The notes under the pieces were generated by a model. The model ran no database searches. It was not told the origin of the DNA and saw only the letters and a program-made list of their open reading frames with translations. Source: Armatimonadota bacterium (GTDB lineage Bacteria; Armatimonadota; UBA5829; DTLH01). Taken from it: a DNA stretch of 64,000 bases. The stretch spans positions 20,317 to 84,316 of the forward strand of contig JACPPP010000046.1 of assembly GCA_016190935.1 (NCBI GenBank). Reading direction: 5' to 3'. Position 1 is the first letter of the stretch. Every line of letters begins with the position of its first letter. Below, one piece after another: positions 11,507 to 35,299 of this stretch. Both the position numbers and the translations under genes were made by a program.

Positions 11507-11518
11507 ATTTTGGGCGCC

Positions 11519-14350: not shown

Positions 14351-14466
14351 AAGTGTCTCCTTCCCGGAGCAGATGCTTGCGGTGTGGCCGTCACCCCACA
14401 CCGCTTGTCTACTCGCGGCCATTTGCGTTGCTACTCAACGCAAGCGTTTATTCATAAGAAAACCGC

Positions 14467-16484: not shown

Positions 16485-18459
16485 TCTTCTCGTCAGTAAT
16501 CAAGCACTCTGGTATATGGTCAGAGTGCCGTCTGCGAAGGTACTGCAGTGCCGTCTCGCAGTCCGGTTGGTACTGGAGATGGTCCTCGTAGAACTTGAGT
16601 CGTGCTTTGCAGTCCTCAATGACCTGGCCCCATGTCTTCACCCAGATTCTGGTCTTGCCATCGTCGCTCTCGTATAGCAGTCCCAGCGGCTTGTCCTTCT
16701 GCCGCGCCATCCGTTGCACCGGATCTGCGATCTCGTTCGAAAGCAACCAGAACACCCAGCGCGTGCCAGTATCTTTGAAGCGCTCGTCGGCTTCCACGGC
16801 AAATGCGTAGTCCTGAATCTGGGTCATGGCCTTCTGATCGATCTTCTTCCTCGGTGCCTTGAGCTCTATGACCAGGTGCTCCCGCTCCTCCACCCGAGGC
16901 TGAGGCACACGCCGCGAGAGCATTAGGTCCACTATCCCCTTGCTGCCGTCGGCACGCAGCACCGGTGCCGCGACCTCATCCTTACGCCCCAGCAGTTTCA
17001 GGTGCTTCCTCAGCACTTCATCGAGAGACTGGTCGTCAACGCTGAGGTGGAACTCCTCGCCGAAGATCCAAGTGTGGTCCGCAAGCACTCGGTGCAGCTG
17101 GCTTCGCTCCCGTAGAGCCTCTTTCGACGCGGGATCGAAGACGAGGATCTCAAGCCCCCGCAGGAAGTTCAGCCTGTCGGCGACCGTCTTTGCAGCGTTG
17201 ATAACGGCGGCAAGGCTGGTCTTCCTAAGCAGTTCGGCCAACTCGGCCACCTTCGCCTGGGGGAGGTCCAAGAGTTCTTGGACGACTTTCAACGTCTCCT
17301 CGGGCCTCTCTTCGAGGGTCTCCCGCAGCAACCGCAATTGGAACTTCCTGGTCTTCTGTTCGGAGCTGTCGAATTCCGGGAGGTAGTTGCTTATACTCGC
17401 AGCGCAGATATCAAAGACATCGCGTCTCGCCTGATCCAGTGGGCCGGTCGGTTCGTCTGGATAAGGATAGATGCCCTCCTGCTTCCACTGCTCGATGATA
17501 TCTGCTGACTTCTCGGCCTCTTTCGACCGCAGATAGCTTCGAAGGGTCTTCCTCGCGGATTCGACGAGAACCCGGATACGCGGGTCGAGCTCCAGAAGCT
17601 GCAGCGCATTCTCATCTACGCTGTCCTGTATAAGCTGGCTCTTCAGGTAGGCTGTGAAGTTGGCAGTCGAGGAGACGCCAGCGGGTATCTCATCCCTGGC
17701 GACGCCATTGGTATCGCAAAGCAGAATTCTCTTCTCCGTCTTGAACGCCCACTCGATAACGGTTAGCATCGGATTCTCCCCTACCAGTTCCGCCAGCTCC
17801 GGGATGGCAACCTCCAAGTTGCACTCGCTGACAATGGCGTGGAAATAGTCAACGGGACGGCCATCGTAGACTATGGAGACTCCAGGGTAGTTGCGCAGGT
17901 AGAGCGCGAAGGTCTCCGTTATCTCGGCGATCGCGTCCGGCTGTGTAAGCGACTCGAACTCCCTTCGCAGATTGGTAATCCGCACGGCAGTGCCCGTCTT
18001 ACGGTGGCCGTCGCGCTGAGGGTCCTCAAGCCTGAACTCCGCCAGCCTATCGAAGTTGCCATGGATGCGATAACTAGATAGCGCACCGTTGTCTGAGTAG
18101 TTCGTTTCCCATATCACGCTATGTCCCAGCGTGAACGCCCGGAACCTGCCTTTGCCCGCTTTGCCGTGCAGTATCCGCTTGTGCCGTCTCGACTTCCGGC
18201 CCGGCCGCTTCCATGAGCCGCCCAGATTGCCGAAGGCATCGTCCGCCTCAGCATAGGATATGCCGTGTCCGTCATCTGTGACAACTATCTCGTCAATAGC
18301 GCCCAAGGGAGAGCGGGCAAATTCCACAGTCACTAGCTCAGCATCGGCATCAAGCCCATTCCAGATCAGCTCAGCGATAGCGTGGATGGGTTTGGCACCC
18401 CCGACCACTCTCTGAAGGTAATCATCCTTGACCTGCACCTGTAACGTCTTCATCCACAA
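16426..18459 (-). CDS. MORC/paraMORC-like GHKL (Bergerat-fold) ATPase fused to a C-terminal PD-(D/E)xK restriction-endonuclease-like domain
   Basis: N-terminus IHAIAELIWNGLDADA...IVVTDDGHGISYAE matches HATPase_c (N-box and G1 DxGxG). C-terminus GIVDLMLSRR...EHLVIELKAPRKKID fits a D...ExK nuclease motif. Confidence 0.6.
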   Translation of the reverse strand: MWMKTLQVQVKDDYLQRVVGGAKPIHAIAELIWNGLDADAELVTVEFARSPLGAIDEIVVTDDGHGISYAEADDAFGNLGGSWKRPGRKSRRHKRILHGKAGKGRFRAFTLGHSVIWETNYSDNGALSSYRIHGNFDRLAEFRLEDPQRDGHRKTGTAVRITNLRREFESLTQPDAIAEITETFALYLRNYPGVSIVYDGRPVDYFHAIVSECNLEVAIPELAELVGENPMLTVIEWAFKTEKRILLCDTNGVARDEIPAGVSSTANFTAYLKSQLIQDSVDENALQLLELDPRIRVLVESARKTLRSYLRSKEAEKSADIIEQWKQEGIYPYPDEPTGPLDQARRDVFDICAASISNYLPEFDSSEQKTRKFQLRLLRETLEERPEETLKVVQELLDLPQAKVAELAELLRKTSLAAVINAAKTVADRLNFLRGLEILVFDPASKEALRERSQLHRVLADHTWIFGEEFHLSVDDQSLDEVLRKHLKLLGRKDEVAAPVLRADGSKGIVDLMLSRRVPQPRVEEREHLVIELKAPRKKIDQKAMTQIQDYAFAVEADERFKDTGTRWVFWLLSNEIADPVQRMARQKDKPLGLLYESDDGKTRIWVKTWGQVIEDCKARLKFYEDHLQYQPDCETALQYLRRRHSDHIPECLITDEKNGSGGSYVRSDAASAPPMG

Positions 18460-18709: not shown

Positions 18710-19909
18710 TCAGGCGCTGCCCCCACCATGCAGGCTTTGACGTGGGCGAACCTGGACCGGCACTACGCTTTCACGCTCGTCGTCGATCACTAGGGTCTGG
18801 CCGGGACCACTCAACTGCTTTATCCGGGAAGGGAGTCCGTCCGATATGTAGTCTTGGCTCAACGCGTCTATGGCCCTGTAATCATCCCGGGACGTTATCC
18901 TGTGAACAATGCGAATACCACACTGCGTCAGGATCTCAGCATCTATTGCTGCTGGTTGCTGGCTCGCCACCAACAGAGAAAGCCCGGGTTGCCGCCCTTC
19001 TTTGGCCCATCGAATGAGTATCTCCTTCGACAACGTGCTTCGACCGCTTGGACAGAAGTTGTGAGCCTCGTCTATGGCCAGCCACACCTTTCTCATGTCC
19101 GACGCCAGTCCCAGGGCCTCACGACGGCGGGCAATCGTGCGCATGCGGAATATGAAAGTAGCCAATACTGCCAGTACAAGATTGCGGAGGCCGTAGCGGC
19201 CCTGGGCGATGACGCTCAGGTCAAGAATGTTTATCGCCTCCGGCTGGAGTATCTCCCAGATCTCACGATAGCGGTGTTCCTCGAAGATTTGCCAGTCGTG
19301 TGCCATATCTAACTTCCTTTGTATGGCTTCCTTCGTCTGGTCGAGGCCGTGCATCTTTATGACCTCCGCCGCTATATCGTCTATCAAGAACTCTCTACCG
19401 TGTCTCTGACCACATTGGCGGACAGCCTTAAATAGCATGATGCCCATAAGCCCGTTGATGTCCAAATCAAAGAGATCGCACCACATTTCGGGTGTCAGGT
19501 CAGACGGGTTGAGCCTCAGCCCCTGAATGTTGATGCCGCGCTTGCGCATCTCATCAACAATATCTGCGCCGCCGTAGCGTTCCACTGGATCGCCAGGAAC
19601 CAAAACGTTCACGTTAAAGCCCCGGGCATCTCGGCTGTATTCCCACAGCTTGTCCGTCTCCGTGAATGAAGGATTCTGTTCAGCCATGCTCCAGAATATG
19701 CCCTGCGGGTCCACGACCAACACGATATCATTGTTGAGCCGAGACAACTCTTCAATGAGGACGCCGAGAGTGTAAGACTTGCCTGTTCCGGTCTTGCCGC
19801 AAACAAGTATCCTCTGGGACGTGCAGCATGGGATACTAACCAGGCTGCCGTCGTCCATCTCTTTGCCAAGGACCAGATTATTGTCTAACATTTCTAGCCT
19901 CCACGCCAA
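18710..19909 (-). CDS. HerA/FtsK-superfamily (DUF87-like) P-loop ATPase
   Basis: Walker A RILVCGKTGTGKSYTLGVLIEEL, Walker B VWLAIDEAHNF, about 400 aa. Confidence 0.6.
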   Translation of the reverse strand: MAWRLEMLDNNLVLGKEMDDGSLVSIPCCTSQRILVCGKTGTGKSYTLGVLIEELSRLNNDIVLVVDPQGIFWSMAEQNPSFTETDKLWEYSRDARGFNVNVLVPGDPVERYGGADIVDEMRKRGINIQGLRLNPSDLTPEMWCDLFDLDINGLMGIMLFKAVRQCGQRHGREFLIDDIAAEVIKMHGLDQTKEAIQRKLDMAHDWQIFEEHRYREIWEILQPEAINILDLSVIAQGRYGLRNLVLAVLATFIFRMRTIARRREALGLASDMRKVWLAIDEAHNFCPSGRSTLSKEILIRWAKEGRQPGLSLLVASQQPAAIDAEILTQCGIRIVHRITSRDDYRAIDALSQDYISDGLPSRIKQLSGPGQTLVIDDERESVVPVQVRPRQSLHGGGSA

Positions 19910-19918
19910 CGAGCACTG

Positions 19919-21046
19919 TTACGCCGTTCTGATAATCAACGGGACTACCGACTCCCACGCCGAGATTCCTCCGTGCACGCCCCACTCGTTGCTTTTCAGT
20001 TCCCTCGTGGTAAACGGTAGCTTCAGCAAAGAATAGGCATTGCCCATGCAAGTTCTAACGCAAGCATAGTGACGGAGACGGCTGCCGCGAATGTAGCGGA
20101 CGTGACGAGAATCGTCAGGATGCAGATCAGCGACCGCAGTCCACTTTCCGTCTAGCTGCTCGCGCCAAAGAATCCCATGATCTGCAGTCAGACAAGCCAA
20201 CACACTGCGATTCCCTCTACAGAGAAACTCAACCAAGGAGTCATACCGAGCCAACAACTCGGACAGATAATGCTTAACAGGAGGTTGGTCCTGGTGGCGA
20301 TGGCAAAGGCCATCTAAGCCTGGTGCTACGATCTGGATGTATCCCCGACTCATCTCTTCCGCCTGAATCATCCGAACACACTCATCGAACCTTCGAATCT
20401 TACACACTTGGCTGGAGCCGAAGACGCCATAGAGGTCGCTGGCCAAGGTGTTGCTGTCAGTGTCGAAATACGTGAATCCAAGTTGATGGCGGTACCCTAT
20501 CGAGAACAGCCTCTCGGATATCGAGGGCTTGCCTATCACTTCCCGGTAGCCGACCTCAGTAGTAGTTGCCCCATCTACGAAACAGGGATGATTTTCCGGA
20601 TCATCCGGCAGGTCGTAATAAGATAGTCCATCCACAACCATCAGGGCTACAACGTCCGGTTCCAGCAGTTTGGCCTTCTCTGCCAGTATGCGCCCTACGT
20701 CCCGTTGGGTGGTCATCACGTCCTTTACCGAGTCGAAGCGATCATAGAGCCTTTCAGATAGCAGGAACGGATCTGGACGCCGGCTGATGTTGTACGCCGG
20801 AAAAGGCCAGTTGGCGGGATCGTCCAACAGGTACTCACGGCGCTCGTCGCATAGCGCCGGATGGTCAAGAAGGTTGAGAAAGGCCGACGCCTCTCGGATA
20901 GGTCGAGCATCATCCAGAAAGAGCAGGTTCAGCGGATTGCCTCGGAACGCCGGCGGATAGGAGTTCAGAGTGGCCGATAGTCCCGACACGAGGGCGTCAG
21001 TGTCGCCACCCGGCTCTCTCGACTCGTGACTCAGACGGCGGCTCAT
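19919..21046 (-). CDS. PglZ-domain (alkaline-phosphatase superfamily) protein, short form
   Basis: C-terminal GVHGGISAWESVVPLII matches the conserved terminal HGGxSxxExxVP motif of PglZ/BrxZ domains. Sits in a cluster with BrxC-like ATPases. Confidence 0.55.
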   Translation of the reverse strand: MSRRLSHESREPGGDTDALVSGLSATLNSYPPAFRGNPLNLLFLDDARPIREASAFLNLLDHPALCDERREYLLDDPANWPFPAYNISRRPDPFLLSERLYDRFDSVKDVMTTQRDVGRILAEKAKLLEPDVVALMVVDGLSYYDLPDDPENHPCFVDGATTTEVGYREVIGKPSISERLFSIGYRHQLGFTYFDTDSNTLASDLYGVFGSSQVCKIRRFDECVRMIQAEEMSRGYIQIVAPGLDGLCHRHQDQPPVKHYLSELLARYDSLVEFLCRGNRSVLACLTADHGILWREQLDGKWTAVADLHPDDSRHVRYIRGSRLRHYACVRTCMGNAYSLLKLPFTTRELKSNEWGVHGGISAWESVVPLIIRTA

Positions 21047-24000
21047 TTCTTCGGACGCTCCACAGTTATCTGGATTTTGCTCTTGCGGAATAGCTCGACG
21101 AGACCGTCCAAGGAAATGTTAAGCACATCCCCGGAGCTGCGGCCGCCTTGCATCATCCTGAGAATGATCTGCTTGAGGTTCACGCCCGGACCGTCCGAGA
21201 TCATGTCCAACATTACCTTCGCGTCCGAAGTTAACTGGTCGTCTTGATCGTCCAGCGGCTTCCTTATCGCAAGCCTTATGGAACGGACCGCGTCTCGGGT
21301 GCCCTTAAGTGCTTCCTTGATTGCGGCCTTGTCTTCGTTGCCATCAGACACAAGCTCCTTGAACCACCCGGGCTTCGCTCTGTCCAGTATTGAGTCAAGA
21401 GACTGAGAATAGGCGCCCAACTGAGCAAGCATTGGATCAGCTTCGTCGGCGGGTATCTGTCCCAAGATGTCACGAGTGTACAGCAACTCTTGATGCTGGG
21501 AGTCAGCCTCTTGCCTTTCTACGCCTATGGCCTCCTGAACATGCTTCGTAGCTTCACTGTAGAGCCGCGCGTAACATCCCTGGATATCATCTGAGTTGAA
21601 CACTTCTCTGCAACGGTAGTCGCTACCGAGATCCAGTTCTTGGAGAAGCTCATTTGCGACCTTCTTCTGCTCCTCGAAGGCAGACCGGAGCTCTTGGATG
21701 TACTTTCTGCGTTCCTCGTCCAGCGTGTCCAGTTGCTGGAAGTACTGCTTATAACTCCCCAGCCCGGTGACGTTTCGGGTCTGAAGATGGCCGGAGATGT
21801 CCGCCCATATTGTATCCAGCTTCCCGATCAGCTCGCTGGCTTTCCCGACATGGGCAGTCTCTTTCTTTAGCTCGATGACTTCCCGGTAGACTTCATCGGA
21901 CCGGGCCAACAAACGTAGCCATTGGTCATAGTCCCGTAAGTAATTCATTACGGCAGACGCTTTACTCTGAGCATCCTTCATCTGCTGTCGCATTTCACCA
22001 ACATCCACCCAGCCGTGAAGCAACAGCGCAACCTTCTCGAGCGGCCTCCCGAGTTTCGTAACGCTGTGCTCTATCAGTGCCTTGCTAGCTGCTGCCTGGA
22101 TTCTCTGAAGCTCTTCGGCAGCGTCCTTGACCGCTGCTTTGAGGCTGACGAGGATATAAGTGTTCAAGTCTGAAGCCCACTTCGATGAGCCCTTGGGCGG
22201 GTTCTGTATTCTGGCGACTTCGGGCGAAGTCCTGAGCGTCTGCGACGCGTTGTTTGCGCTGGTCTGTACGCCCTCGATGTCGCCCTTCAGGCGCTCAAAG
22301 TAGTTCGGAAGCCGGCTGTGCATAAGCTCGAACTCCCTGTTCATTCGGGTCTGAAGGCTGTCATACTGGGCTTCATCCTTCAGTCCGTCGATGGCCTTTT
22401 TGGTGGCAGCTGAATCGAACGACGATGGGAACTCCGGCAGCTTCTTGAACTCGTCTATCTCCGCTTGAAGATCAGTCAGCTTCTCACTTAGCTGAGTCTT
22501 CATCTGATCGAGGTCCAATGGCCGGCAGAACAGGACTGGTTTGCCGCCGGACTCAGCCGTCTCAAAGCTGCCCCGGCTCTTTCCGATCTCCACAATCTGC
22601 AGTAGTTCGTCTAAGCTGTAACCGGAGCAGAGCATGACGGACTTAACATCCTCGAAGGGCACACACCAGCACTCCACGCCGCCGAACTTCTTCTTAGGAA
22701 GCGGGTTGTCCGTGGTTATCTTCTCGATGATTGCCTCTTCCAGAGGATGTAGCTTGAAATCCACCTGAAGGTCGTTCCTGTCAGCGGGTTTGATGGTTAT
22801 TAAGTTCTCAAAGCCCGCGAATGCTCCGCCTGTGAGATTCATCCGGCTGGTGTTGAACACTCTGGCTACGGCGTCCCCCGATTCGATCCACGGCTCTCGG
22901 CCGCGCTTGCAGCTAAGGGGAATGTCGGCGTTCTTAAGCGCGACGACGTACTGATTGACCTTCTGTTCCCACTGGGGCTGCCGAATCAACGTCGAGTAAC
23001 CGTGGTACCGGCTGAGAAGTATGAACCGACAGACGCTGCCTATGAGAGCCAGCGCGTCTCCCGGTATGTGTTGCCCCACTTGCTCTGACGCTTGCTGACG
23101 GACCTGTGGGTCGCCCAATAGCTTTGTCAGGAGTTCGCGAAGAAGCTGCTCCTGAAGTGCGCTCCACTGGGCCTCATAGTCTCTGGAGAGGGTACGCTTG
23201 TGCTTCTCGCTGATCAGATAGAGGGCTCCCAACGGGTTGAGCAGCACTTTTCCGACAACTTCCTCCAACCCCGGATGGTCGATCGCATTGTCCGCAAAGT
23301 CCAGTATCAAACGGATGACTCCTGGCCTACCTTCCTCAGGATCCCCTGGACTGACCTCGATCCGTTGCTCCGGCATCGGATCATCTTTGCTCCACCGAAT
23401 TCGGAAGTGCACGACAATGTCTATCGGCGAATCAGGTGCCCAGACCTCCGTGAAGACTCTGCCAGGGTCTGCATCGTATGGTCCGACCGCGACAGCAACA
23501 GTGCGCTTGGGAAAGTCACGGGTGGTCTGCATAAAAGCGCCCACAAGCTCAGCGGCTCTCGTGTCCGATTCGACCTTGTTCCACTTCTCTGGGATTTCCC
23601 AGCCCTGTAACTGCTGACCCTGACGTGGTTCGAAGATTCGAGGGATAACTCGCCTGATGAAAGCGTCCCGCGCTGAGGCAAACGTGGCAGGATTCGGCGC
23701 GAATTCGCTGGCGATGTCAACCAGGGTGTCCCGCAACTCATCTTGATCTGCACCAGCAGCCTGTCTCTGCAATCTAACCAGCCCGAAGAGGTTGCCTCGC
23801 TTGTAGACCAGATTTGGCCGCCTGATTAGGAAGTCCTTGGTCGCTGTATCTATGCCGAGGCGATCAGCCAAGTCCAGTGTAACGCCGTTTGGGAAGGCGG
23901 CGAGAGTGGTGACCAGTGCCTTGTCAATCCCCTCCGCTTCCGGAGAATCCAGGATCTCGCGCACCCGCGTTGGGTAATCGGAGACAAGTATCTCGCCATC

Positions 24001-25077
24001 GAGGCAGTCCCTAACGAAATCTGAGGGCAAATAAGCAGTACCGCGGTCCTTGTAGCAGAAAACCATGCGTCTGAAGGCAGATACAACCGTTCTGGGGCCA
24101 TACGATAGATCGTTTCTCTCCGATGACGCCACCTGGCCGATTGCCTGCAGAGCTTCCTCCGAGATCGCCTGTGTTCCTATCTCTCCTAAGCTGAACTCCT
24201 CGACGTAGCGTTGCCACAATGTTCGGGCGAAGTCAGAACCGTAGATATCCCGCAGTCTGGGGAAGCAGTTTCTGCCCTGAAGTCTGGCAGGCAGCGCCGC
24301 AAAAGCAGCTTGCGCTTGAGCCAGGAAATTCTCGGGCATCGAGACGAAAACACCGTAGTCTCCTTGGCGACTCATAAGGCCGTTAGCTATGTCGAAGAGT
24401 ATCTGAGAGACTTTGGCCGTGCCAAGGGTCTTAGCCGCCACCTCCGGTTCGTCCAGCATTACGAGAAGACCGGAGTATCCAGCGCGGCCCAGCACTTCGG
24501 TGACCTCTGTGCAGTAGTCCAGAAAGCGTTCGGGGCTTGTCTGGATGCCGATGGTGCCGCCTGCGTTCACGGTGTCAGTGTAGGTCTTGAGGACATCGTC
24601 TACATTCCTGCCGCTGTGCCGAGCGGTCTCCTCCGCCAGTTCCTGCAAGGACTTCTCTCGATAAGACTCATACGACTTCTTGGCCGCAAGGGCAAGCTCG
24701 GCGTGTGTCTTGGCAAGTATGTGCTGGACCCACGCAGAAACTCCATCTACAAGGTCAGTCACTCTCTCCCATTCGAAAGGAGGTACGGCGAATACCTTGC
24801 GCTCCTCACACTGATCCCAGATGTGCACTTGGAAGCTTGTCTTTCCGTGCCCGTAGCCTCCTGCCACCCCGCCTATGAAGCCGCCCAGGTTGGATCCGCC
24901 GACCCACTTGAAGACGGCGTCTACGTATCTGGCAGTGTCTCCCAGTGAGATATGCGTGCGGGCGTGTGCCCGGTATATCTGTTCCACCTGCTCCGGATTG
25001 GAGGATAGAAACGACACTGGAAACGTGGCTATGATCGCTTCCTTGTTAAGAATCAGATCCAGATCCTCAAGTGGCAT
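21043..25077 (-). CDS. Giant P-loop ATPase (1344 aa), BrxC/PglY-like, with long C-terminal coiled-coil region
   Basis: N-terminal Walker A GGVAGGYGHGKTSFQVHIW and Walker B LLVMLDEPE. Large helical/coiled-coil C-terminus. Size and context (PglZ downstream) resemble BREX BrxC/PglY. Confidence 0.5.
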   Translation of the reverse strand: MPLEDLDLILNKEAIIATFPVSFLSSNPEQVEQIYRAHARTHISLGDTARYVDAVFKWVGGSNLGGFIGGVAGGYGHGKTSFQVHIWDQCEERKVFAVPPFEWERVTDLVDGVSAWVQHILAKTHAELALAAKKSYESYREKSLQELAEETARHSGRNVDDVLKTYTDTVNAGGTIGIQTSPERFLDYCTEVTEVLGRAGYSGLLVMLDEPEVAAKTLGTAKVSQILFDIANGLMSRQGDYGVFVSMPENFLAQAQAAFAALPARLQGRNCFPRLRDIYGSDFARTLWQRYVEEFSLGEIGTQAISEEALQAIGQVASSERNDLSYGPRTVVSAFRRMVFCYKDRGTAYLPSDFVRDCLDGEILVSDYPTRVREILDSPEAEGIDKALVTTLAAFPNGVTLDLADRLGIDTATKDFLIRRPNLVYKRGNLFGLVRLQRQAAGADQDELRDTLVDIASEFAPNPATFASARDAFIRRVIPRIFEPRQGQQLQGWEIPEKWNKVESDTRAAELVGAFMQTTRDFPKRTVAVAVGPYDADPGRVFTEVWAPDSPIDIVVHFRIRWSKDDPMPEQRIEVSPGDPEEGRPGVIRLILDFADNAIDHPGLEEVVGKVLLNPLGALYLISEKHKRTLSRDYEAQWSALQEQLLRELLTKLLGDPQVRQQASEQVGQHIPGDALALIGSVCRFILLSRYHGYSTLIRQPQWEQKVNQYVVALKNADIPLSCKRGREPWIESGDAVARVFNTSRMNLTGGAFAGFENLITIKPADRNDLQVDFKLHPLEEAIIEKITTDNPLPKKKFGGVECWCVPFEDVKSVMLCSGYSLDELLQIVEIGKSRGSFETAESGGKPVLFCRPLDLDQMKTQLSEKLTDLQAEIDEFKKLPEFPSSFDSAATKKAIDGLKDEAQYDSLQTRMNREFELMHSRLPNYFERLKGDIEGVQTSANNASQTLRTSPEVARIQNPPKGSSKWASDLNTYILVSLKAAVKDAAEELQRIQAAASKALIEHSVTKLGRPLEKVALLLHGWVDVGEMRQQMKDAQSKASAVMNYLRDYDQWLRLLARSDEVYREVIELKKETAHVGKASELIGKLDTIWADISGHLQTRNVTGLGSYKQYFQQLDTLDEERRKYIQELRSAFEEQKKVANELLQELDLGSDYRCREVFNSDDIQGCYARLYSEATKHVQEAIGVERQEADSQHQELLYTRDILGQIPADEADPMLAQLGAYSQSLDSILDRAKPGWFKELVSDGNEDKAAIKEALKGTRDAVRSIRLAIRKPLDDQDDQLTSDAKVMLDMISDGPGVNLKQIILRMMQGGRSSGDVLNISLDGLVELFRKSKIQITVERPKK

Positions 25078-25576
25078 TCGCTTTCCCTCTTTCTATAGCT
25101 TCGGTACGAAGTATCAGGCCCAAGTCGGTCCCGTCCGCAGTGGTCTTGAAAGACTGCAGCACTCCGTGCTTCGTGAGATTGTGTTGGAACTGCTTGACAT
25201 CGCGCTCTTCCAGAACGAGATCGGCTCTTGGCATTGGGTCCTGCGGCGGTTGTCGCATCAGCACTACGACCCGCTTCAATCCCAGCAACTGGGCAGCCGG
25301 TCTCATCAACCGAGAGTACTCTTCACCGTCCACCACGACACTCTCTGTGCCAGCAGGCACATCCCTGAGATTGGGAAGGTATGTATAACCCCGTTCCTTT
25401 GCGAGTAGCCTGGCGATGAATGACTTCCCGCTGCCTGAAGGTCCGCAAAGGCAGACGAAAGTCTCGGCTTGCCACCGCTCCACTATGTCGTTGAACGCGC
25501 GTTTCTGAGTAGCCGTCAGCCACTCGTATTCTGCTTTGAGCTTTATCTGATTCAGCCACTCGACATACAGGCTCAT
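25067..25576 (-). CDS. Small P-loop NTPase/kinase-like protein (169 aa), function unknown
   Basis: Walker A FVCLCGPSGSGKSFIARLL. Overlaps the start of the giant ATPase gene by 11 nt. Confidence 0.4.
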   Translation of the reverse strand: MSLYVEWLNQIKLKAEYEWLTATQKRAFNDIVERWQAETFVCLCGPSGSGKSFIARLLAKERGYTYLPNLRDVPAGTESVVVDGEEYSRLMRPAAQLLGLKRVVVLMRQPPQDPMPRADLVLEERDVKQFQHNLTKHGVLQSFKTTADGTDLGLILRTEAIERGKANAT

Positions 25577-25585
25577 TACGAAGCC

Positions 25586-26422
25586 TCACAAATCCTCAAT
25601 GGTAAATCCGCGGGTCAGGTTGACGGAGGGCCCTGCCAACGTGTCCGAGAGCTTTATACTCGGCGTGATGCTAGCTGCCAGGCGCAGTAGATTCGCGCAA
25701 CAGCCGCGGTCAAGGAAGAAGACACCGGCTACCTGATTCAGTAGTGAATCATCCATCACAACTGCATCCCCGTACCTGTACCTCCGGGAACGATAGACAT
25801 CATCCAATGCCAACGCCGCCAGTTCGTATCGATCAACTATCCGCGGTTGAACGTGTCTGCCACGGGGATCGAATGCAGGGGGAGTGAGACAACCGAGCCA
25901 ACTCGAGACGCAGGATGCCGCCTTGTGGTTGAAGCGTCCACCTGCCTTTCCCATGGAGTCGATATGCGGAAAGGCCGAAACCATCTCAGCCTGGATTAGC
26001 GCCGCCAGTTCCACCGCTGGGATCATCTTCCCGTTGGCCCACATAAGTTCGCAGCAACGCCGGTAGCTCCAGAGATACTTGCGATCGGTCGGTGAACCGC
26101 CGTAGCCTGAGAAATGCAGGTAATGCAACAAGTCCCTGGCAAATGCTGCGTCAGAGGCCTGCACGGTTTGGACCCTCAGTCCTCGGGAGGTGAGGCAGTA
26201 TTTCAGACCTCCGTCCCTCATTTGCTCTGCCAGTCCGAGGTCGAACAGCCTGCGGGGGGTATACGTGTGATCTCTCTGCATCGGCTCGCCGTACTGGCTA
26301 TCAAGCGTATCTGCTATCTCGTCGGGTGACAAACAGACGTCTGCTGCCAACACTCGAAGCACGCGGGTAACTTCGTCTGGCGGAGCACTATCTATATAGA
26401 AATGAGTATCCTCTTCCATTCT
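25586..26422 (-). CDS. Hypothetical protein (about 279 aa), no recognisable domain
   Basis: ORF in operon context. Start taken at internal Met (MRMEEDTHFY) because the N-terminal extension overlaps the next gene. Confidence 0.3.
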   Translation of the reverse strand, partial: RMEEDTHFYIDSAPPDEVTRVLRVLAADVCLSPDEIADTLDSQYGEPMQRDHTYTPRRLFDLGLAEQMRDGGLKYCLTSRGLRVQTVQASDAAFARDLLHYLHFSGYGGSPTDRKYLWSYRRCCELMWANGKMIPAVELAALIQAEMVSAFPHIDSMGKAGGRFNHKAASCVSSWLGCLTPPAFDPRGRHVQPRIVDRYELAALALDDVYRSRRYRYGDAVVMDDSLLNQVAGVFFLDRGCCANLLRLAASITPSIKLSDTLAGPSVNLTRGFTIEDL

Positions 26423-26426
26423 CATG

Positions 26427-26966
26427 TCACCGCACCCCAAGAATGTCCTGCACATCGGCCGCCCCGAAAACGGATAGCATCGGTGCGAGGCTCTCCCTCT
26501 CACGGATCTCGAAGAACTCGGACAGGATGAACTGAGATAGGTCGCGGCGGATATCGGAGTACATCATCAGGGAGTAGGAATCGGGGTCAAGGAAGACGTA
26601 ATCGATGTTCTCCAGTATTCCCGCGCTTCCTCCGCCGGAGGTGTCTAGCTCCGAACAGGCGCGCTCTTTACCTCTCAGAGGCTTGTGGTACCAAAAGCCG
26701 GAGGTGCGCAAGTGGAAGAATGGCTCCGACGGGTGACACCAGTCGCCTTCCTGCTGCACCAGAGCAAACAGTCGGCTGAACGTGTTCTTGAGCCGTTCAT
26801 CGAAACGGATCCTGTTTTCGGATATCTCCCGCCTGTCCAGCAACTCGATGACAGCGAGCAGCAACAACGGCTTATGGGGCTTCATTCGGCCCTTGTGGAC
26901 ACCACGCCGCATGCCAAGTATCTCGGCTCTCAGACGTGCAACCTTCTCCTCCAACGCAGTGTCCAA
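26427..26966 (-). CDS. Hypothetical protein (179 aa) with conserved-looking HKPLLLLAVIELLD...FxxLF...W..P..PFFHLRTSGFWYH segment; function unknown
   Basis: ORF in operon context immediately downstream of the PAPS-reductase-like gene. Motif pattern recalls DNA-modification-associated small domains but could not be assigned. Confidence 0.3.
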   Translation of the reverse strand: MDTALEEKVARLRAEILGMRRGVHKGRMKPHKPLLLLAVIELLDRREISENRIRFDERLKNTFSRLFALVQQEGDWCHPSEPFFHLRTSGFWYHKPLRGKERACSELDTSGGGSAGILENIDYVFLDPDSYSLMMYSDIRRDLSQFILSEFFEIRERESLAPMLSVFGAADVQDILGVR

Positions 26967-26984
26967 CCTAACCTCCTCAACTGT

Positions 26985-27779
26985 TCACAGCGTGCAGACT
27001 AGACAAGGGGACGACTCCTCTTGGTCTTGCAGCAGATCGCATAGACGGGAACCCGTGCCGACACTGCGGGCTGTTCGCGCTCCGTATTCGGCCTTGATCG
27101 CAGCGACCCGCTCCGGTCGCGATAGTTCCTCAAGACTCTCATTGTCGCACCACGTGAACCGCCGACCCGTGGCTTGGTCCGTCTTCTCGTAGCCGCTCGC
27201 CAGTCTGAACAGTTCTGGGTGATGCTCCAAGAGCCCGACCCACTCAATCTTCTGTTGGAAGAAACAAAAGTAGCAGCCGGATCTCGACCGCCATTTTCGG
27301 TACCCGGGCATGCCGATTCCCGTTTCCTCCAATATCCGCTCAATATCGTGGTAGCACAATCCATCCTCTTTGAAAGGGTATACGGCTTTGATATTGGGCT
27401 TCTTCGAAATGTAACCTTCACGGTCTTCGTCAGCCCTTATGCCTACATAGCTGATAACAGGTGCTTCGCCAACATACTTCTCAAAAGGTTTCAGTTTAAG
27501 GTACTTGGTGCACCAACGCATGTTAGATGCTGGCAGATAGCCGCCGAACACGTTGAGCCAGTGATCAAAGCCGCGACCATCGTGCTTCAGCACCGTGATG
27601 GACTTACCAAGGAAGGCTTCTATGCGTGCGAGGTATTCATAAGTTTCGGACAGCTCCTTCTCGGTATCGCAGAACACGTACTCCATCTCTGGGACCTTGT
27701 CCCGCATGTAGATCGCCAGTGCGGCGCTGTCCTTGCCGCCGGAGATGGAAAGTATGTGTCGCAGCCTTCCTTCAGACAT
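26985..27779 (-). CDS. PAPS-reductase-family PP-loop ATP pyrophosphatase (SspD/DndC/BrxP-like)
   Basis: PP-loop ILSISGGKDSAALAIY (SGGxDS) near the N-terminus, about 264 aa, cysteine-rich C-terminus. Confidence 0.75.
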   Translation of the reverse strand: MSEGRLRHILSISGGKDSAALAIYMRDKVPEMEYVFCDTEKELSETYEYLARIEAFLGKSITVLKHDGRGFDHWLNVFGGYLPASNMRWCTKYLKLKPFEKYVGEAPVISYVGIRADEDREGYISKKPNIKAVYPFKEDGLCYHDIERILEETGIGMPGYRKWRSRSGCYFCFFQQKIEWVGLLEHHPELFRLASGYEKTDQATGRRFTWCDNESLEELSRPERVAAIKAEYGARTARSVGTGSRLCDLLQDQEESSPCLVCTL

Positions 27780-27782
27780 CCG

Positions 27783-30700
27783 TTACTTCTCCTCCTCGAT
27801 ACATTCGCTGCCATCAGCTGTAGCCAGACGCTTGGTAGCCTCGGTTAGAGCAGCGAGAGCAATCCGTCGATCCACGTTTACGACTGCCCCCTGAGCGATC
27901 AAATCAACAAGACTCGCGATCTCATCCCGATCACTATCCGAGAAACGCACCAAGTGGCGAATAGCCTCCCCTTGACGACCGCTGATCGTCAACAGATAGC
28001 CGTCCTCGCCGTCCTCCAACGCCAAACCCAGCGACTGAGCTGCCTCGATTCCGCGCACCTGAGCTGCGATCTGTGGGACAAGCCGACCGAAGCTATCGGC
28101 GTCGGCCTTGCTCCACCGGCTTGGCGGTTGGCCGACGATGCCCGCTCCGAGCGACTCCAGGTACTCCGTATCTCCAAGCTGAGCTTCGCGAGCACGCACT
28201 GTCAACGCCCGTAACTTGGAGTCCGTAGCCAGATCATATAGCTTCGAGGCCCGCTTCTCCACCTTGCGTCTCCAGTCGTCTCCGGCGGGAACATCGAATA
28301 TGTCGAGGATTCCGCGGAGCACACGCTCCAATAGCTGCGGGTAGCAGACGATCAGAGCATCGAACGCCTTGTTCAGGCGGTCGAAGAACGTCCCGACATT
28401 GCTGTCCTCCAAGGACTCCTTGTCCGATGGCTGGAACGGGTGGCAGCCCAGCGCAACAGGCAGGTCAACGAAGATGAGCCGTTCGGGGCTCTTCGCTCTT
28501 AGGATCGCCTCTCGCACCGCTATGGCTTCAGGCGGCAAATCTCTTGTCATCTCGACGTATCTGGGCAAGGATCCCATTCTCTGATACAGCGATCTCGCTA
28601 CCGGCAGCAATCCACTCTCGACGCGAAATCCCCGCGCGAACCGCTCGATGACCTGCTCGCGCTCTCCATCGATCCCGAAACGCAAGACAGAGAAATTCTC
28701 AGGTCGGCGCATCAGTCGTTCCATTACTGGCGGCGTCAGGTCGGGGACAAACACCCCGTCTTCATACATGGCCATCGTGCCGCAGTAGCTGATCATGCAG
28801 GCGCACAACAGCACCGGCACAAAACCATCGGCGACGCCGTAAGGAGGGCCGCTGAGTTCTCGGAAGAGTTGGCTCACGGAGATGGGCTTCAGCGATTCCG
28901 AGTAAGCTCGTTCAAGCAGGCAATCCCAGGCTTTCTGCAGCCCGGTATCTTCATCATTCGGTCGGCCGAACTCCCACTGTTCCTTGTCGTTCAGCCGGTG
29001 CACGCCGCTCCTCAGCAAGAGCGACTCGTATATGCTCCTCTCGGGGGGATAGCCATTGAAACCTAACCCGGGCTGGTCTTCCACCGTCAGCATCGCCTTG
29101 ACGAGATTACCTCGCGCGGCGGCCGCTGCCGACGAGAGTCTCCGGCGGTTGATTAGCTCATTCTGGACGACTGGCGCGAACTCGAAGGTGGCGTCGCAGG
29201 CATCGGAGAGCAGGGACGCGAGGTCTCTGGTGGATGCCGTCTTCCTTTGCTCCCCTCGCCAGAGACATAAAGTCTCGCCGGTACCAGGAGTGAATATCCG
29301 GTTCCATTCGGTTCTGAATGCAATCTCGGCTTCAAGTCTCCGCTCGTTGAGTTCCTGCCGAGCTACCCTATCGCCGGCGAGAGCCGGGGTGTTATGCTTG
29401 ACCCACTCCAGCGCTGCGACATCACGTGCGGCCTCCAGAAGCTCGTCGTTCTCTGTCCCGACGAGAACAAGGACAGAAGGGTCCACCAGACCGCTGAGGG
29501 CCGATATCACGGATTCCCTTTGCTCGTAATCCTGCACGAGACAGTGAATCAACCGTCCGTCAACGTCCTCTCTCGGCTCAAGAGCCGTGGAGAGATCCTC
29601 CTCTGAACTGGGTGTGACTGCAAACGATCTCAGCATGCCGGTGCGGAACGAATGTCTCCTGGCAACAACGGGCGGCGACGGACACAGGTCTCTAGCCACA
29701 GAAACTGCAACAGACTGAGATGGTAGCGCTTGGTACGCCGCCGCCAGCCGTTCCCCGACGTCTACGTCGCTGCCCTCCCACAATCGAAAAGCGTTGCGGA
29801 ACCTCCGGAATACGATTAGCCGCTTCTCTTCGAGCAGATCAAGGGCGGCCTGAATCCGCTCCGGCGAGCAAATCGGTGAAGACAAGGCAAGCATCAGAGC
29901 TTCGCGGGAAGCATGGAAACGTGATGTTTCCCCAACCAGGCTCAGCAGACCGACGCTCTTGAGGACGTCGACTTCCTCAAGCGTGGCGTCACCGAGCCTC
30001 GCAATCGCCTCTTCGACTTCCGCCCATGCGCGTGCTACATGAGGCGCTGGGGCTCCGCCAACAAGCGTGTGGCACGCATAGTCGTAGAGTTGAGGCAGGC
30101 GCATGAAAGGCGGAGCATCAGCATCAAATTCAGAATCTCGCACCCAATCGGTCAAGGAAAATGGCTCGTTCGCCGACAGAAATGAGAACAACGATCTTTC
30201 GCTCTGCCCGTATTTCCTGAACAAACCTGGAAGCAGCACAAGCGAAGTGGGGTGGAGCGGATAGCACGATACGCACAGATCCTCGAAGTCGCTTTCCGAT
30301 CCACGTGGCGCAAGTCCGGCACAGGCTTGAGCAGACTGCCGTATCGCCTGATTCGCGCACACGGCTTCGCTATCAGTGCTGTTCAATGCTCTTGCGACGA
30401 GCTGGAACGCATCAAGCCCATCCAGGACGCAGGGAACGTCAAAGAACCGTTGCTGGACGCGCTCCCACTCCCGCTGATGCCGTCGGCCCAAACGGGAGGC
30501 ATACTGGGAGAACTGCTGATGCAGGATGGTAACGAACCAAAGAGGGTAGTCGTGGCTGCGTGACGCAGCTTCGGCCATTTCCTGGAGGATCTGTACATCG
30601 CTGTCTTCGGAGCGCAGTGCCGCGTATTCCAATAGCTTTCCGAGTTCGTCGACGATCACAACTACGCCTAACGCCTGCTCTCCTTCAGCAGCAATTCTGG

Positions 30701-31247
30701 CGAGATCCTCGAATATCCTGACGACGGCCTTGGTGCCTGGATTCCTCGACTGGATTTCCTTTCGATGCTTCGTGAGCAGTGCGCGAAGTAGCGTCTGCCG
30801 CCCAGACAGTTCAAGCGAGCGTTTCAGGTTGCGCATGAGTGATACAGCGATGTTCTCCCTGGTACCTGTTGCCAGGATCGTTATGTAGCCCTGTTCCGGC
30901 GGCGGCAGGAGCTGATTGGCGACGCCATCGATGTCACCGCGCGCTCTGTCCTTGAAGCCGTTGTTCTGTGCTTTGTCGAGCAGTCTGGCGAAGTACAGCG
31001 CCAACGCTGATTTGCCAGAGCCGTACGGACCTGAAATGCACTGAGCGCGATATGAAGGGTCGGACGTTCCGCGCGCAAGGAGAGACAGGGCGGACAACGA
31101 GCCTCGAGTTAAGAGATAACCCTCGGCAGCATCGTCCGTATAGAAATCGCGCTCCAGATGCACTGATCTCAGGAACCGTGGGCTCAGGGAGATCAACTCG
31201 GACATAGCGGCCTTACCGGCTGGCATAGTAAGCCTCCAGAAAAGCAA
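27783..31247 (-). CDS. DUF499-type large P-loop ATPase (SspC/BrxC-like)
   Basis: Walker A CISGPYGSGKSALALYFARLL, Walker B VVVIVDELGKLLEYAA, followed by an ILHQQF motif, as in BrxC/SspC family ATPases. The true start may be the internal Met about 31205. Confidence 0.65.
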   Translation of the reverse strand: MLFWRLTMPAGKAAMSELISLSPRFLRSVHLERDFYTDDAAEGYLLTRGSLSALSLLARGTSDPSYRAQCISGPYGSGKSALALYFARLLDKAQNNGFKDRARGDIDGVANQLLPPPEQGYITILATGTRENIAVSLMRNLKRSLELSGRQTLLRALLTKHRKEIQSRNPGTKAVVRIFEDLARIAAEGEQALGVVVIVDELGKLLEYAALRSEDSDVQILQEMAEAASRSHDYPLWFVTILHQQFSQYASRLGRRHQREWERVQQRFFDVPCVLDGLDAFQLVARALNSTDSEAVCANQAIRQSAQACAGLAPRGSESDFEDLCVSCYPLHPTSLVLLPGLFRKYGQSERSLFSFLSANEPFSLTDWVRDSEFDADAPPFMRLPQLYDYACHTLVGGAPAPHVARAWAEVEEAIARLGDATLEEVDVLKSVGLLSLVGETSRFHASREALMLALSSPICSPERIQAALDLLEEKRLIVFRRFRNAFRLWEGSDVDVGERLAAAYQALPSQSVAVSVARDLCPSPPVVARRHSFRTGMLRSFAVTPSSEEDLSTALEPREDVDGRLIHCLVQDYEQRESVISALSGLVDPSVLVLVGTENDELLEAARDVAALEWVKHNTPALAGDRVARQELNERRLEAEIAFRTEWNRIFTPGTGETLCLWRGEQRKTASTRDLASLLSDACDATFEFAPVVQNELINRRRLSSAAAAARGNLVKAMLTVEDQPGLGFNGYPPERSIYESLLLRSGVHRLNDKEQWEFGRPNDEDTGLQKAWDCLLERAYSESLKPISVSQLFRELSGPPYGVADGFVPVLLCACMISYCGTMAMYEDGVFVPDLTPPVMERLMRRPENFSVLRFGIDGEREQVIERFARGFRVESGLLPVARSLYQRMGSLPRYVEMTRDLPPEAIAVREAILRAKSPERLIFVDLPVALGCHPFQPSDKESLEDSNVGTFFDRLNKAFDALIVCYPQLLERVLRGILDIFDVPAGDDWRRKVEKRASKLYDLATDSKLRALTVRAREAQLGDTEYLESLGAGIVGQPPSRWSKADADSFGRLVPQIAAQVRGIEAAQSLGLALEDGEDGYLLTISGRQGEAIRHLVRFSDSDRDEIASLVDLIAQGAVVNVDRRIALAALTEATKRLATADGSECIEEEK

Positions 31248-32154
31248 TCGAAGCCAAGGGTTGCTCGTCCCGTTTCACGACGCGCCTTACCTGCGTAGTA
31301 TCCTCAAAAACCATTGCTCCACCACTTGTATCAGAGACGCTGTCCAGGTAAGAAAGAACGGAATCCTCATCCAGCCTGAAGACCTGCGCCGGACTTCCTT
31401 CGGAACCTATGATCTGACGCAACTCCAGAGTCTGTCGCTCACAGCACTTCATATTCCAGAACTCAGACAGCGCATAGGTGAACACTCCTGAGGGTAGGGT
31501 CGGTTTCGGGCCAGTCCTAAGTCGCAGCCGATCTCCATCCGGCTCTTGAACCAGCAGATCCAGTCCAGTGAGCGGACACTCGATGGGGTCCTCACCATTC
31601 GTGACGTCATCTCTGCGAGACAAGTAAGTGTGTATAAGGCAGTCAACGTCGCGCTTCACGGTCGACTCAGACACGTCTTGCCATCCGATGGTCTGGATGA
31701 ACCTAGTCAGAGCGTCCAGCATGGCGGGTCTGGTGAATGCATACTCGTGGAACCTATTGAACGTCCAGTACCAGGTAGCCGCGCGCGTTCCTGCGCTGGT
31801 GAGATTCCAGTGAAGCAGCCAAAGAGTTCCCTCGTCCTCCAAGTAAGGATCCCAGCCAGCATCTTTCAGGAGGCGGTTGCCCAGGTCTGTAGGACGCAGA
31901 CGCCTCGCCCGTGTCCCGGGTTCCTCCTCGGCCACTCTGGTCGCGAGGCACCAGTGGCGGATAGACCGAACCATATTTTTGCCCACCCCAAGAGTAACAA
32001 TAGCGTCCTCACGCTGAAAGGACTCGCGGTCCCGGCTCAGGCTATCTACGCCCTTCTTCAGCCAGGCGTGCCGAAACGCGAAAGTCTCATGTCCGGCAAA
32101 GGACTTCGCAAAAGGCACCTGCACTTCGTTTTCCGCCAGTTGAACTGATACCAT
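31213..32154 (-). CDS. DUF4007-like protein (SspB-like candidate)
   Basis: N-terminal FAGHETFAFRHAWLKKG segment as recalled for DUF4007 family proteins that partner PAPS-reductase-family genes. Position is directly upstream of the DUF499 ATPase and PAPS-reductase genes. Confidence 0.4.
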   Translation of the reverse strand: MVSVQLAENEVQVPFAKSFAGHETFAFRHAWLKKGVDSLSRDRESFQREDAIVTLGVGKNMVRSIRHWCLATRVAEEEPGTRARRLRPTDLGNRLLKDAGWDPYLEDEGTLWLLHWNLTSAGTRAATWYWTFNRFHEYAFTRPAMLDALTRFIQTIGWQDVSESTVKRDVDCLIHTYLSRRDDVTNGEDPIECPLTGLDLLVQEPDGDRLRLRTGPKPTLPSGVFTYALSEFWNMKCCERQTLELRQIIGSEGSPAQVFRLDEDSVLSYLDSVSDTSGGAMVFEDTTQVRRVVKRDEQPLASIAFLEAYYASR

Positions 32155-32245: not shown

Positions 32246-32461
32246 TCAGGCGTCTTGTTCGACGCCGCCACTTACACGCGCGTTAGCCAGTACCCACGAA
32301 TCCACCTCGGCCTTGCGAAACTTCCAGAGGCGGCCCAGCTTTATGGCTGGCATGCTCCTCCGATCAATCCACTTGTAGATCGTGTCCCGCTTGACACCTA
32401 AGTAGGCCGCGATCTCTCCTACAGAAAGCCAGCGATCATCGATACTGGAATCTACAGACAC
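32246..32461 (-). CDS. Excisionase/AlpA-family (MerR-like) HTH DNA-binding protein
   Basis: WLSVGEIAAYLGVKRDTIYKWIDRRSMPAIKLGRLWKFRKAEVDSW is a typical excisionase/AlpA HTH. Homologous (about 55 percent identity) to 50429-50653. Confidence 0.6.
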   Translation of the reverse strand: MSVDSSIDDRWLSVGEIAAYLGVKRDTIYKWIDRRSMPAIKLGRLWKFRKAEVDSWVLANARVSGGVEQDA

Positions 32462-33018
32462 TGTTACACACCTGCGCTAAGCTATCTACGGATGCGTTGC
32501 CGATTCCCAGATCGGCCCGCTTCCTTGGCCTGCAAAATGGTATAGCAAAGCACCTGCCGATGTCAAGTGTTATCGTGGGAAGAAGTGTGGTTTACTAGGA
32601 CCAATTGGACACATTCATGCCTCGCCGGTTCGAGGTGAACCTGCACCCCCGACAATCGGGTGCCGCAATGCCTTTGCGTAAATCGGCAAATCATCCCATC
32701 TTGCAGAACTATTCTCCGTTTCCTAAGATGTGGTTACATCAACGGGGAAGCAAGGAGTTTAGGCATGACGGAAACTCTCGGTAGGACCGCGGACTCGATC
32801 ACAGGAGCTTGTTCCGATAGAGGGGGAGTACAGCAGCGTGAGAAGGATTCTCACGTAGTCGAAAAGGCCGCTTCCCGCTTTGCGAGACTCTTCTGGCAGC
32901 AGCACATTTCGGAGCTACGATCCCGTGTCAAGCAGGGTAGCCCGCGACGACACCTGGGGCAAACTTGACGCCTCAGGATTACGGTGACATTGCAGCCGCA
33001 GTGCAATGCAGCCGTCCG

Positions 33019-34614: not shown

Positions 34615-34682
34615 AGCAGTGGTTCCTTCCCGCAATTCACAGACTTCCGCCCGAATGCGAGGCTGATCATCTGGAGGCAAGG

Positions 34683-35042: not shown

Positions 35043-35299
35043 AGGGGCCTCCGTCTGGTTAAGCGTCCTCTCCGGGCTCAAAGAGGACGCGAGGCTGATA
35101 GCAGGGGACGAGCCTAGTGAGTACATGATGTATATCATTGGTCGGAGTCATTGTCAATAGCGGTGCAGTTACCCCCTTGGGCCCCTGGGCAAGCAAGTTG
35201 ATTTCGTTTCCGGCGGTGTGCTACTATCGATAGGCTTGGGAAGCTGGCGAAGGACGATCTGACTTCGTGATAGAGGGGAGTCGTCGGGAGGAACCAACA

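Follow-up and report, generated by a model that had tools for sequence, protein, structure and literature searches.

The closest described relative of the gene cluster reported here is BREX-Related Capture (BRC), a computational prediction covering 45 taxa that was published in January 2026 (Nucleic Acids Research 2026; PMC12839542, section 36). BRC is built from PglZ, a DUF6079 ATPase, a STAND NTPase, a DUF4007 protein and HerA/FtsK, with GNAT and TGT added in a subset, and it is predicted to be a defence system in which PglZ is the effector and HerA the translocase (PMC12839542). Our cluster of nine genes occupies positions 18710-32154, on the minus strand, of a 64,000-nt stretch of DNA (the window) from an Armatimonadetes metagenome-assembled genome (MAG; locus tags HYX78_018xx, proteins MBI2842128-135). 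Its five downstream genes code for a DUF4007-like protein, a small STAND-type NTPase, a BrxC-like ATPase, a short PglZ and a HerA/FtsK-like ATPase; they are the BRC core, and the order of the published accessions agrees with theirs. A first reading, made from the sequence alone, had rightly seen a module in these genes that resembles bacteriophage exclusion (BREX) systems in its PglZ, ATPase and HerA, but it took the layout to be undescribed and type 4 BREX to be the nearest described relative. Neither of the latter points can be kept, since the five genes are those of published BRC, and the PglZ of the window, identical to MBI2842128.1, is itself an entry in the BRC PglZ list (Supplementary Data S3 of PMC12839542). 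The modification arm is different: in BRC as published it consists of GNAT/TGT alone (7-deazaguanine/acyl marks), whereas here the genes sspB, sspC and sspD of a phosphorothioate (PT) writer stand at that position together with a candidate reader, a sulfur-binding domain (SBD) protein. No GNAT, TGT or que gene was found in the window.

We conclude that the locus belongs to the BRC core family and, judging by its sequence, clearly also to the Ssp writer family, though without SspA. Set against the available parts of the literature, the new elements are the coupling of the BRC core to PT through SspBCD and an SBD, the occasional fusion of that SBD, and the swappable writer. In section 36, the discussion, the conclusions and the supplement text of PMC12839542, PAPS reductase, SspBCD, PT and SBD are not mentioned for BRC (its neighbourhood figures may differ), and PT comes up there only for type 4 BREX. 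Full-text literature searches returned no other paper that joins phosphorothioation, HerA and PglZ.

Comparison with other modification-based systems

With the SspABCD-SspE and SspABCD-SspFGH systems the locus shares SspB, SspC and SspD, as identified by hidden Markov models (HMMs), PT as the presumed self mark, and an SspA that can be supplied in trans. It differs in its restriction arm, which here would be the five-gene PglZ/HerA/ATPase module: the PADLOC models of SspE, SspF, SspG and SspH match none of the nine operon proteins at E<=0.01, and membership of either system was rejected. Type 4 BREX likewise combines PAPS-reductase-based PT writing with a BrxC-like ATPase and PglZ, and a DUF4007 module is present in it too. 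However, our locus has separate SspD and DUF4007 genes in place of BrxP, in which the PAPS reductase is usually fused to DUF4007, and a PglZ of 375 aa, compared with ~800-900 aa, including a helical linker and a C-terminal domain, in type 4 BREX; it also has a second large ATPase, a small NTPase and HerA. SspD matches the BrxP model only weakly (1.2e-9, vs 4e-110 on the SspD model). The lack of PglX and BrxL had already been remarked on from the sequence, and searches agree: operon and window contain no methyltransferase, BrxL, Lon, SspA, TGT or GNAT (Pfam, PADLOC and tblastn; for BrxL and Lon also NCBIfam). With no BrxL, a short PglZ and no BrxP fusion, the locus was rejected as a type 4 BREX. 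Islands of 'sspBCDB-brxCZL type (or similar)' are mentioned in passing for 40 strains (PMC12914056); these also have a second SspB after SspD, but BrxL is found there and HerA here.

DndFGH and the HerA/FtsK-anchored capture systems (PMC10853773) resemble the locus in having a HerA/FtsK motor, a triple winged-helix protein (DndG is SspB-related) and a PT partner, while the predicted effector here is PglZ and not a nuclease of the restriction-endonuclease fold. PADLOC detected no homologue of DndF, DndG or DndH, apart from a weak match of HerA to the DndH C-terminus (7e-5), and DndFGH membership was rejected. MADS (mad1-8) is, like our locus, large, multi-gene and modification-based, and mad8 matches the HerA-like ATPase (6e-22). 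Its mandatory components are mad6, mad7 and mad8; mad1-7 gave no match at E<=0.01, methyltransferase and kinase are lacking, and MADS membership was rejected as well.

The nine-gene arrangement recurs across phyla

A run of co-oriented minus-strand genes had been proposed for 18710-32154, and it is real: all nine open reading frames (ORFs) are present, in one orientation and tightly packed. Neighbouring genes are at most 18 nt apart and overlap by at most 35 nt, a maximum that holds only if the TTG codon at 31247 is the start of SspC; such spacing is typical of a single operon. The G+C content of the operon (0.54-0.60) is the same as that of its flanks. All nine products could be identified, by HMMs complemented by two structure models of high confidence and one match to a PDB entry. 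The arrangement goes far beyond what chance would produce, as dozens of loci belonging to several phyla show it in the same colinear form.

A first set of 13 distinct loci, taken from genome and assembly collections, spans Dehalococcoidia, Bacilli, Armatimonadota, Thermodesulfobacteriota, Desulfobacteraceae, Anaerolineae, Pirellulales and Chloroflexia. The ssp genes lie beside the core in all 13, and ten have the colinear order SspB-SspC-SspD-(SBD)-277aa-169aa-1344aa-PglZ-HerA; in L005 the DNA ends within sspD, and L002 (Bacilli) has a divergent sspDCB plus sspA. Scanning metagenomes with a PglZ alignment that covers the whole family yielded 203 confirmed matches, of which the best 80 were used. 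After removal of near-identical copies this census comprised 79 distinct loci, 45 of them readable upstream of the 277-aa gene that opens the core. Directly upstream of the core, these 45 informative loci carry SspD in 27 cases (seven of them with an SBD too), GNAT-TGT in ten and SspA/DndB in three. Nothing recognisable precedes the core in the other five, which include one with a recombinase insertion and one with only 774 nt of upstream DNA. In this census the Ssp-linked form is commoner than the TGT form among relatives of the window locus (27 vs 10). It is widespread in uncultured bacteria of several phyla, for example Chloroflexota, Thermodesulfobacteriota, Armatimonadota and Bacillota, which RefSeq-based surveys miss.

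In a sister clade, GNAT-TGT or queCDEF-TGT occupies exactly the same position before the same five genes, and the TGT-type locus L015 also has queC, queE, queD and queF. Since either SspD or GNAT-TGT precedes the same five-gene core, we conclude that the writer module is swappable at a single position. The SBD gene is accessory: 7 of the 27 Ssp-type loci have it. In L016 the SBD is fused to the N-terminus of the 277-aa SspB-fold protein (P0275), at the same operon position, and this fused SBD is 40% identical to that of the window (2e-18); the fusion physically ties the putative PT reader to the first core subunit. The placement of SspD directly before the core and the SBD fusion together bear out the suggestion of the sequence-only reading that the two halves are coupled and not simply adjacent. 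A 448-aa relative of the 277-aa protein (P0332), considered as a further SBD fusion, was rejected, having no SBD on checking.

Individual loci vary around this plan. In two Anaerolineae loci (L008:975-8535, L009:1-3445) the core is preceded by genes for SspB, a 1248-aa protein resembling SspC, a cysteine desulfurase, a GIY-YIG-like protein of 157 aa and a member of the DndB family. A GIY-YIG-like gene is found downstream of HerA in L007 and L068, followed in L007 by DndB. The cyanobacterial locus L081:1-5801, which holds published BRC representatives, has four unrelated upstream ORFs (571, 288, 424 and 371 aa) and, like L071 and L085, no recognisable writer there. L021:168-5445 is an Ssp-type core with a truncated 277-aa gene, and recombinase- and integrase-like genes replace its upstream region, an apparent insertion of a mobile element into the system. 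The contig of L071 carries a ParA-like gene and is plasmid-like. Immediately downstream of HerA, L002:16540-17715 and L017:9189-11378 encode a GmrSD_N protein (DUF262; an SspE-like N-terminal domain), followed in L017 by a DUF4007 gene; in some clusters, then, an SspE-like effector may be joined to the BRC core. Other loci adjoin integrases and Gabija-like, UvrD-like or GmrSD-like genes.

The writer genes

The first gene of the operon, sspB (31213..32154, on the minus strand, like all nine), encodes a DUF4007 triple winged-helix protein (Pfam DUF4007 2.6e-84; PADLOC SspB 4.1e-93), which is MBI2842135.1 and is named 'DUF4007 family protein' by NCBI. SspB is the DNA-recognition/nicking subunit of the PT writer. 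The second gene, sspC (27783..31247), encodes a large BrxC-like P-loop ATPase (PADLOC SspC 5.9e-299; BrxC-PglY 3.7e-168) with the motifs GPYGSGKS and IVDELGK; its start is uncertain, with the TTG at 31247 and HMM alignments that begin only at about residue 23 (PADLOC SspC covers 23-1068). The third, sspD (26985..27779; MBI2842133.1), encodes a PAPS-reductase-like PP-loop enzyme with the motif SISGGKDS (PADLOC SspD 4.2e-110; Pfam PAPS_reduct 1.3e-11), SspD being the sulfur-inserting subunit of the writer. These Pfam and PADLOC scores agree with the assignment of the three genes to SspB-SspC-SspD, and of the first product to the DUF4007 family, that had been made from the sequence. The accompanying description of the second product as a 'DUF499-type' ATPase was right about an ATPase of the SspC/BrxC type, whereas the label itself is imprecise: Pfam DUF499 has no match on SspC at E<=0.01, where AAA_16 is the sole Pfam match.

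The sulfur-binding domain protein

Between the writer and the core lies the gene of a 179-aa SBD protein without a nuclease domain (26427..26966), which phmmer matched to PDB 8H0L, SBDHga, at 5.1e-23. It also matches the N-terminal part of NCBIfam PT-DNA_restrict, a model of PT-DNA restriction endonucleases (3e-9). The sulfur cavity of SBDHga is made up of H25, K26, L75, P76 and H79 (PMC10602919), and four of the five are kept here as H31, K32, P82 and H85, with E81 in place of L75. The four retained residues lie in the motifs KPHK and PFFHL, which are invariant in the seven operon-linked SBDs that we aligned. Going by these residues, the protein is a putative reader of PT-modified DNA. It resembles most closely SBDHga, whose target is the hemi-PT CpsCA that Ssp systems produce (PMC10602919). 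Although it is clearly an SBD like those of the type IV restriction enzymes ScoMcrA, SprMcrA and Hga, it has no HNH or PD-(D/E)xK domain and is encoded with a PT writer. Because of that linkage, it would have to read self DNA and could not be directed at foreign PT-DNA. In a second Armatimonadota locus the SBD gene (L003:7908-8651) encodes 247 aa, with a C-terminal extension of ~90 residues that has no Pfam match.

The five core proteins

The first core gene (25586..26419) encodes a 277-aa protein whose predicted structure is a second SspB-fold triple winged helix, DUF4007-like and BrxA-like. The mechanically called ORF reaches 26503 (GTG; 305 aa), but orthologues and the NCBI call place the start at 26419, so a gene of 'about 279 aa' put forward earlier does exist, with a length of 277 aa. 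The protein has no match in Pfam, NCBIfam or PADLOC, and hhalign aligned its family colinearly with SspB, though without significance (E 0.027, probability 1.9%); here, as for the 375-aa protein below, structure prediction alone settled the fold. Since this protein too is modelled with the SspB fold, the operon appears to encode two SspB-fold proteins, and with the second of these the DUF4007/BrxA-like tripartite winged-helix protein of BRC is present. We regard it as a putative subunit for recognition of a DNA site or mark.

The next gene (25067..25576) encodes a small P-loop NTPase of 169 aa with the Walker A motif GPSGSGKS and the Walker B-like motif VVVD. Its Pfam matches (nSTAND3/AAA) are weak, and BLASTP matched it to L081:5181-5801 at 1e-10 and to the TGT-type copy in L015 at 1e-8. 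The first residues of L081:5181-5801 agree with the HEY9694178.1 row of the published BRC STAND-NTPase alignment. We conclude, on these sequence matches, that the protein is the 'STAND NTPase' of BRC, the BrxB counterpart. What had been listed as three unknown small proteins can now be named as an SBD, an SspB-fold protein and the small NTPase of BRC.

The giant ATPase of 1344 aa (21043..25077) is BrxC/BrxD-like. Its Walker A motif is GGYGHGKT (73-80) and its Walker B motif LLVMLDEPE (204-212), and residues ~860-1190 resemble a long coiled coil. Pfam BrxC_BrxD is matched by 24 of 25 relatives (best 1.5e-7) and, below cut-off, by the window protein itself (1.1e-3); these matches, together with the published description, are the grounds for a BrxC-like architecture. 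The family comprises 111 homologue clusters of constant length, ~1345 aa. As in the BRC accession order, the gene sits between PglZ and the small NTPase, and its product is probably the 'DUF6079/BrxC counterpart' of BRC. A profile search of the PDB with this family returned coiled-coil noise only. SspC and the 1344-aa protein were rejected as close paralogues, their likeness being confined to 85 columns around Walker B (hhalign, probability 85%).

The fourth core gene (19919..21046) encodes a 375-aa enzyme of the PglZ type, with an alkaline-phosphatase/NPP fold. Its AlphaFold2 (AF2) model is of high confidence (predicted local distance difference test, pLDDT, 91.4; predicted template modelling score, pTM, 0.90). 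Foldseek matched this model in the PDB to PorX (7PVA, 1.6e-9), to BREX PglZ (9ZN5_B, 4.5e-7) and then to NPP/ENPP enzymes, in line with the short PglZ-domain protein recognised in the sequence-only reading. Sequence searches returned little: nothing in Pfam, NCBIfam or PADLOC for the protein itself, a faint PglZ Pfam match (E ~0.05) for 5 of 13 orthologues, and no match of a 13-sequence profile to PDB sequences. Across 53 diverse family members D139, T163, D245, D289, H290 and H358 are invariant, and H249 is conserved in at least 90%. Such residues are the canonical two-metal and Thr-nucleophile set of the NPP/alkaline-phosphatase superfamily. Because this set is complete, we predict that the enzyme is active, and we regard it as a putative effector, either a phosphodiesterase or a nickase. 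The family is small and isolated: a search of 1.84 billion proteins yielded 152 representatives at E<=1e-3. Almost all of them are 355-380 aa long, and one 872-aa protein matches only at E 2.5e-4.

The last gene (18710..19909; exact start codon uncertain) encodes a HerA/FtsK-like ATPase of 399 aa with Walker A GKTGTGKS and Walker B AIDEAH. Its scores (Pfam DUF87 9.5e-14; PADLOC HerA 1.1e-25) bear out the earlier assignment, and its sequence makes it a putative DNA translocase. It is the most conserved component, with 69-85% identity among Ssp-type loci across phyla and 43-47% to the TGT type, compared with 24-67% for the others, among which SspB, SspC and the 1344-aa ATPase diverge fastest. 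This pattern suggests a constrained motor amid fast-evolving partners, and the rapid divergence of those three would fit subunits that set specificity or take part in an arms race.

A two-arm model and its alternatives

We consider it fairly probable that the operon is a single, two-arm, PT-based defence system of the restriction-modification (R-M) type. The conserved synteny, the writer swap, the SBD fusion, the abutting or overlapping genes and the defence context are the reasons for this reading. In the writer arm, SspB, SspC and SspD would put PT marks on a short motif in host DNA, with sulfur from a cysteine desulfurase encoded elsewhere; by analogy, this is the role established for SspABCD. 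The restriction arm would be the five-gene BRC core. Its SspB-fold protein may bind DNA, the small NTPase and the coiled-coil BrxC/BrxD-like ATPase may form an ATP-driven scaffold or switch, like BrxB and BrxC, and the HerA/FtsK-like ATPase would translocate DNA. The short PglZ would be the effector, a phosphodiesterase or nickase that keeps unmarked DNA from replicating. Where present, the stand-alone SBD is proposed to read the sulfur of the PT mark and, docked on the SspB-fold subunit, to tell the core that the DNA is 'self'.

Several observations count against the two-arm reading. As the sequence-only reading had noticed for SspA, the window holds no cysteine desulfurase detectable by tblastn with the SspA of L002 as query (E<=1e-3), so PT synthesis would need a gene outside it; SspA is present in L002 and L008, and it is often substituted by IscS-type desulfurases (PMC11185695). 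The SBD cannot be the sole route of PT sensing, because 20 of 27 Ssp-type loci have none. In L008 and L009 the DNA examined beside the core has no sspD or other PAPS reductase gene, and L071 (1044-5374) and L085 have a core without a recognisable writer. In view of these two writer-less loci, the core may act without a cognate mark, as has been proposed for DndFGH. The census is itself biased towards relatives of the window PglZ, being built on the best 80 of 203 matches, and all relatives found come from MAGs or metagenomes. PorX-type PglZ domains hydrolyse nucleotides and oligonucleotides. Nuclease activity of PglZ is documented only for type 1 BREX (PMC12839542).

The direction of the PT signal might also be the reverse of the one that we propose. 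PT would then license restriction and not veto it: host PT, sensed through the SBD, the SspB-fold subunit or both, would stimulate the core NTPases and arm PglZ and HerA against incoming DNA or during infection, so that PT would be an activator or positioning signal and not a protective tag. SspE is described as PT-stimulated and PT-sensing in the available parts of PMC8092258 and PMC13251355, and PT occupies a minority of consensus sites (PMC8053081, in its available parts; PMC12914056), which fits poorly with a simple protective tag. The presence of an SBD and a writer in one operon also implies that the system binds its own mark. However, most Ssp-type loci have no SBD, and the TGT/GNAT swap at the same position is most simply explained by interchangeable self-marks in the classical R-M logic. 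We therefore regard a licensing role as unlikely, though it is the alternative that fares best.

Less plausible still is that two independent systems adjoin in a defence island, namely an orphan SspBCD, with an epigenetic or redox role or a distant SspE as partner, and a self-sufficient BRC that recognises invaders and makes no use of PT. Defence islands do juxtapose unrelated systems, and a cyclic oligonucleotide-based anti-phage signalling system (CBASS) and other candidates lie nearby in the window; some cores have no recognisable writer (L071, L085); the GmrSD_N gene beside the cluster in L002 and L017 could be the true Ssp partner; and Dnd modification and DndFGH are commonly decoupled, according to the available parts of PMC10853773. 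Against this stand the constant gene order, with almost no space between genes, in 27 of the 45 informative loci, which come from several phyla, the replacement of SspBCD by another writer in the same slot, and the fusion of an SBD to the first core protein; moreover, the PADLOC models of SspE and SspFGH leave the nine operon proteins unmatched.

A PglZ that spares DNA and, like PorX/NPP-type enzymes, hydrolyses a signalling nucleotide or oligonucleotide, or drains the nucleotide supply, with HerA and the ATPases as DNA-directed machinery or the whole leading to abortive infection, would suit the best structural matches, which are PorX, its PglZ-type domain solved with pGpG, and the NPP/ENPP phosphodiesterases, as well as the reported inhibition of PglZ nuclease activity by ATP and the plausibility of nucleotide substrates (both noted in PMC12839542), but we think it improbable, given that BREX PglZ 9ZN5_B is also a strong structural match, that the operon contains no cyclase or other signal-generating gene, and that a gene linked to writers of DNA marks and to winged-helix proteins that bind DNA would be expected to act on DNA.

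We propose only tentatively, and with somewhat less than even confidence, that the BRC core is a generic engine of restriction, indifferent to the kind of mark. Its one writer slot would be filled by SspBCD for phosphorothioate or by TGT/GNAT for 7-deazaguanine or acyl marks, and the SspB-fold subunit, alone or with a docked or fused SBD, would be the dedicated reader of the self mark. If this proposal is true, this would be the first BREX-like system whose modification-reading subunit can be named and mutated, and an SBD would serve self-recognition inside a PT-writing system and not attack on PT-DNA. How BREX-type systems sense their self mark, and what PglZ does in them, are open questions that this family addresses: its PglZ is compact (375 aa) and has a clean catalytic set, and it provides a separable reader candidate, SBD plus SspB-fold protein, that is naturally fused in one relative. 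As the same core occurs with two natural marks, domain swaps could test how mark recognition is wired to restriction. Ssp phosphorothioation would also gain a further restriction partner beyond SspE, SspFGH and the BrxL-type hybrids.

Transcription signals and genomic neighbourhood

The best sigma-70-like promoter match (TTGACA-18-TACCAT, 32537..32566, minus strand) agrees with the consensus at 10 of 12 positions and is a consensus match only. It is a weak pointer, for the region as a whole holds nine promoter-like sites against a shuffle expectation of 6.3 +/- 2.9, which is not above expectation; a terminator scan was not above shuffle expectation either. Read from 32566 to 32537, this site lies upstream of a 71-aa ORF (32246-32461, minus strand) just upstream of sspB, which resembles HTH_17/AlpA excisionases (4e-16) and is not conserved in the other loci checked.

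The nine-gene locus is flanked by a type III CBASS with CapH/CapP, a candidate system with a GHKL ATPase, and a serine recombinase. The CBASS operon (10001-15400, minus strand) is complete, with a SAVED-endonuclease effector (10001-11506), a CD-NTase (11519-12424), two HORMA proteins (12409-12909 and 12906-13373), TRIP13 (13370-14422), the M78 peptidase CapP (14467-15177) and the helix-turn-helix regulator CapH (15035-15400), all on the minus strand. Immediately downstream of HerA lies a two-gene candidate defence unit (15465-18459, minus strand). It encodes a 677-aa GHKL ATPase (HATPase_c_3 4e-16), the C-terminal part of which matches PADLOC SduA/DUF4263 at 9e-7, and a 339-aa protein that matches the PADLOC candidate PDC-M14A at 4.6e-18. 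Just upstream of sspB, at 33019-34884 on the minus strand, is the gene of the large serine recombinase, with Resolvase, Recombinase and Zn-ribbon domains. Mobility of the island is possible; no tRNA gene was found in the window. Beyond the recombinase, on the plus strand, an 881-aa protein with an N-terminal PHP domain and PD40/beta-propeller repeats is encoded at 35267-37912.

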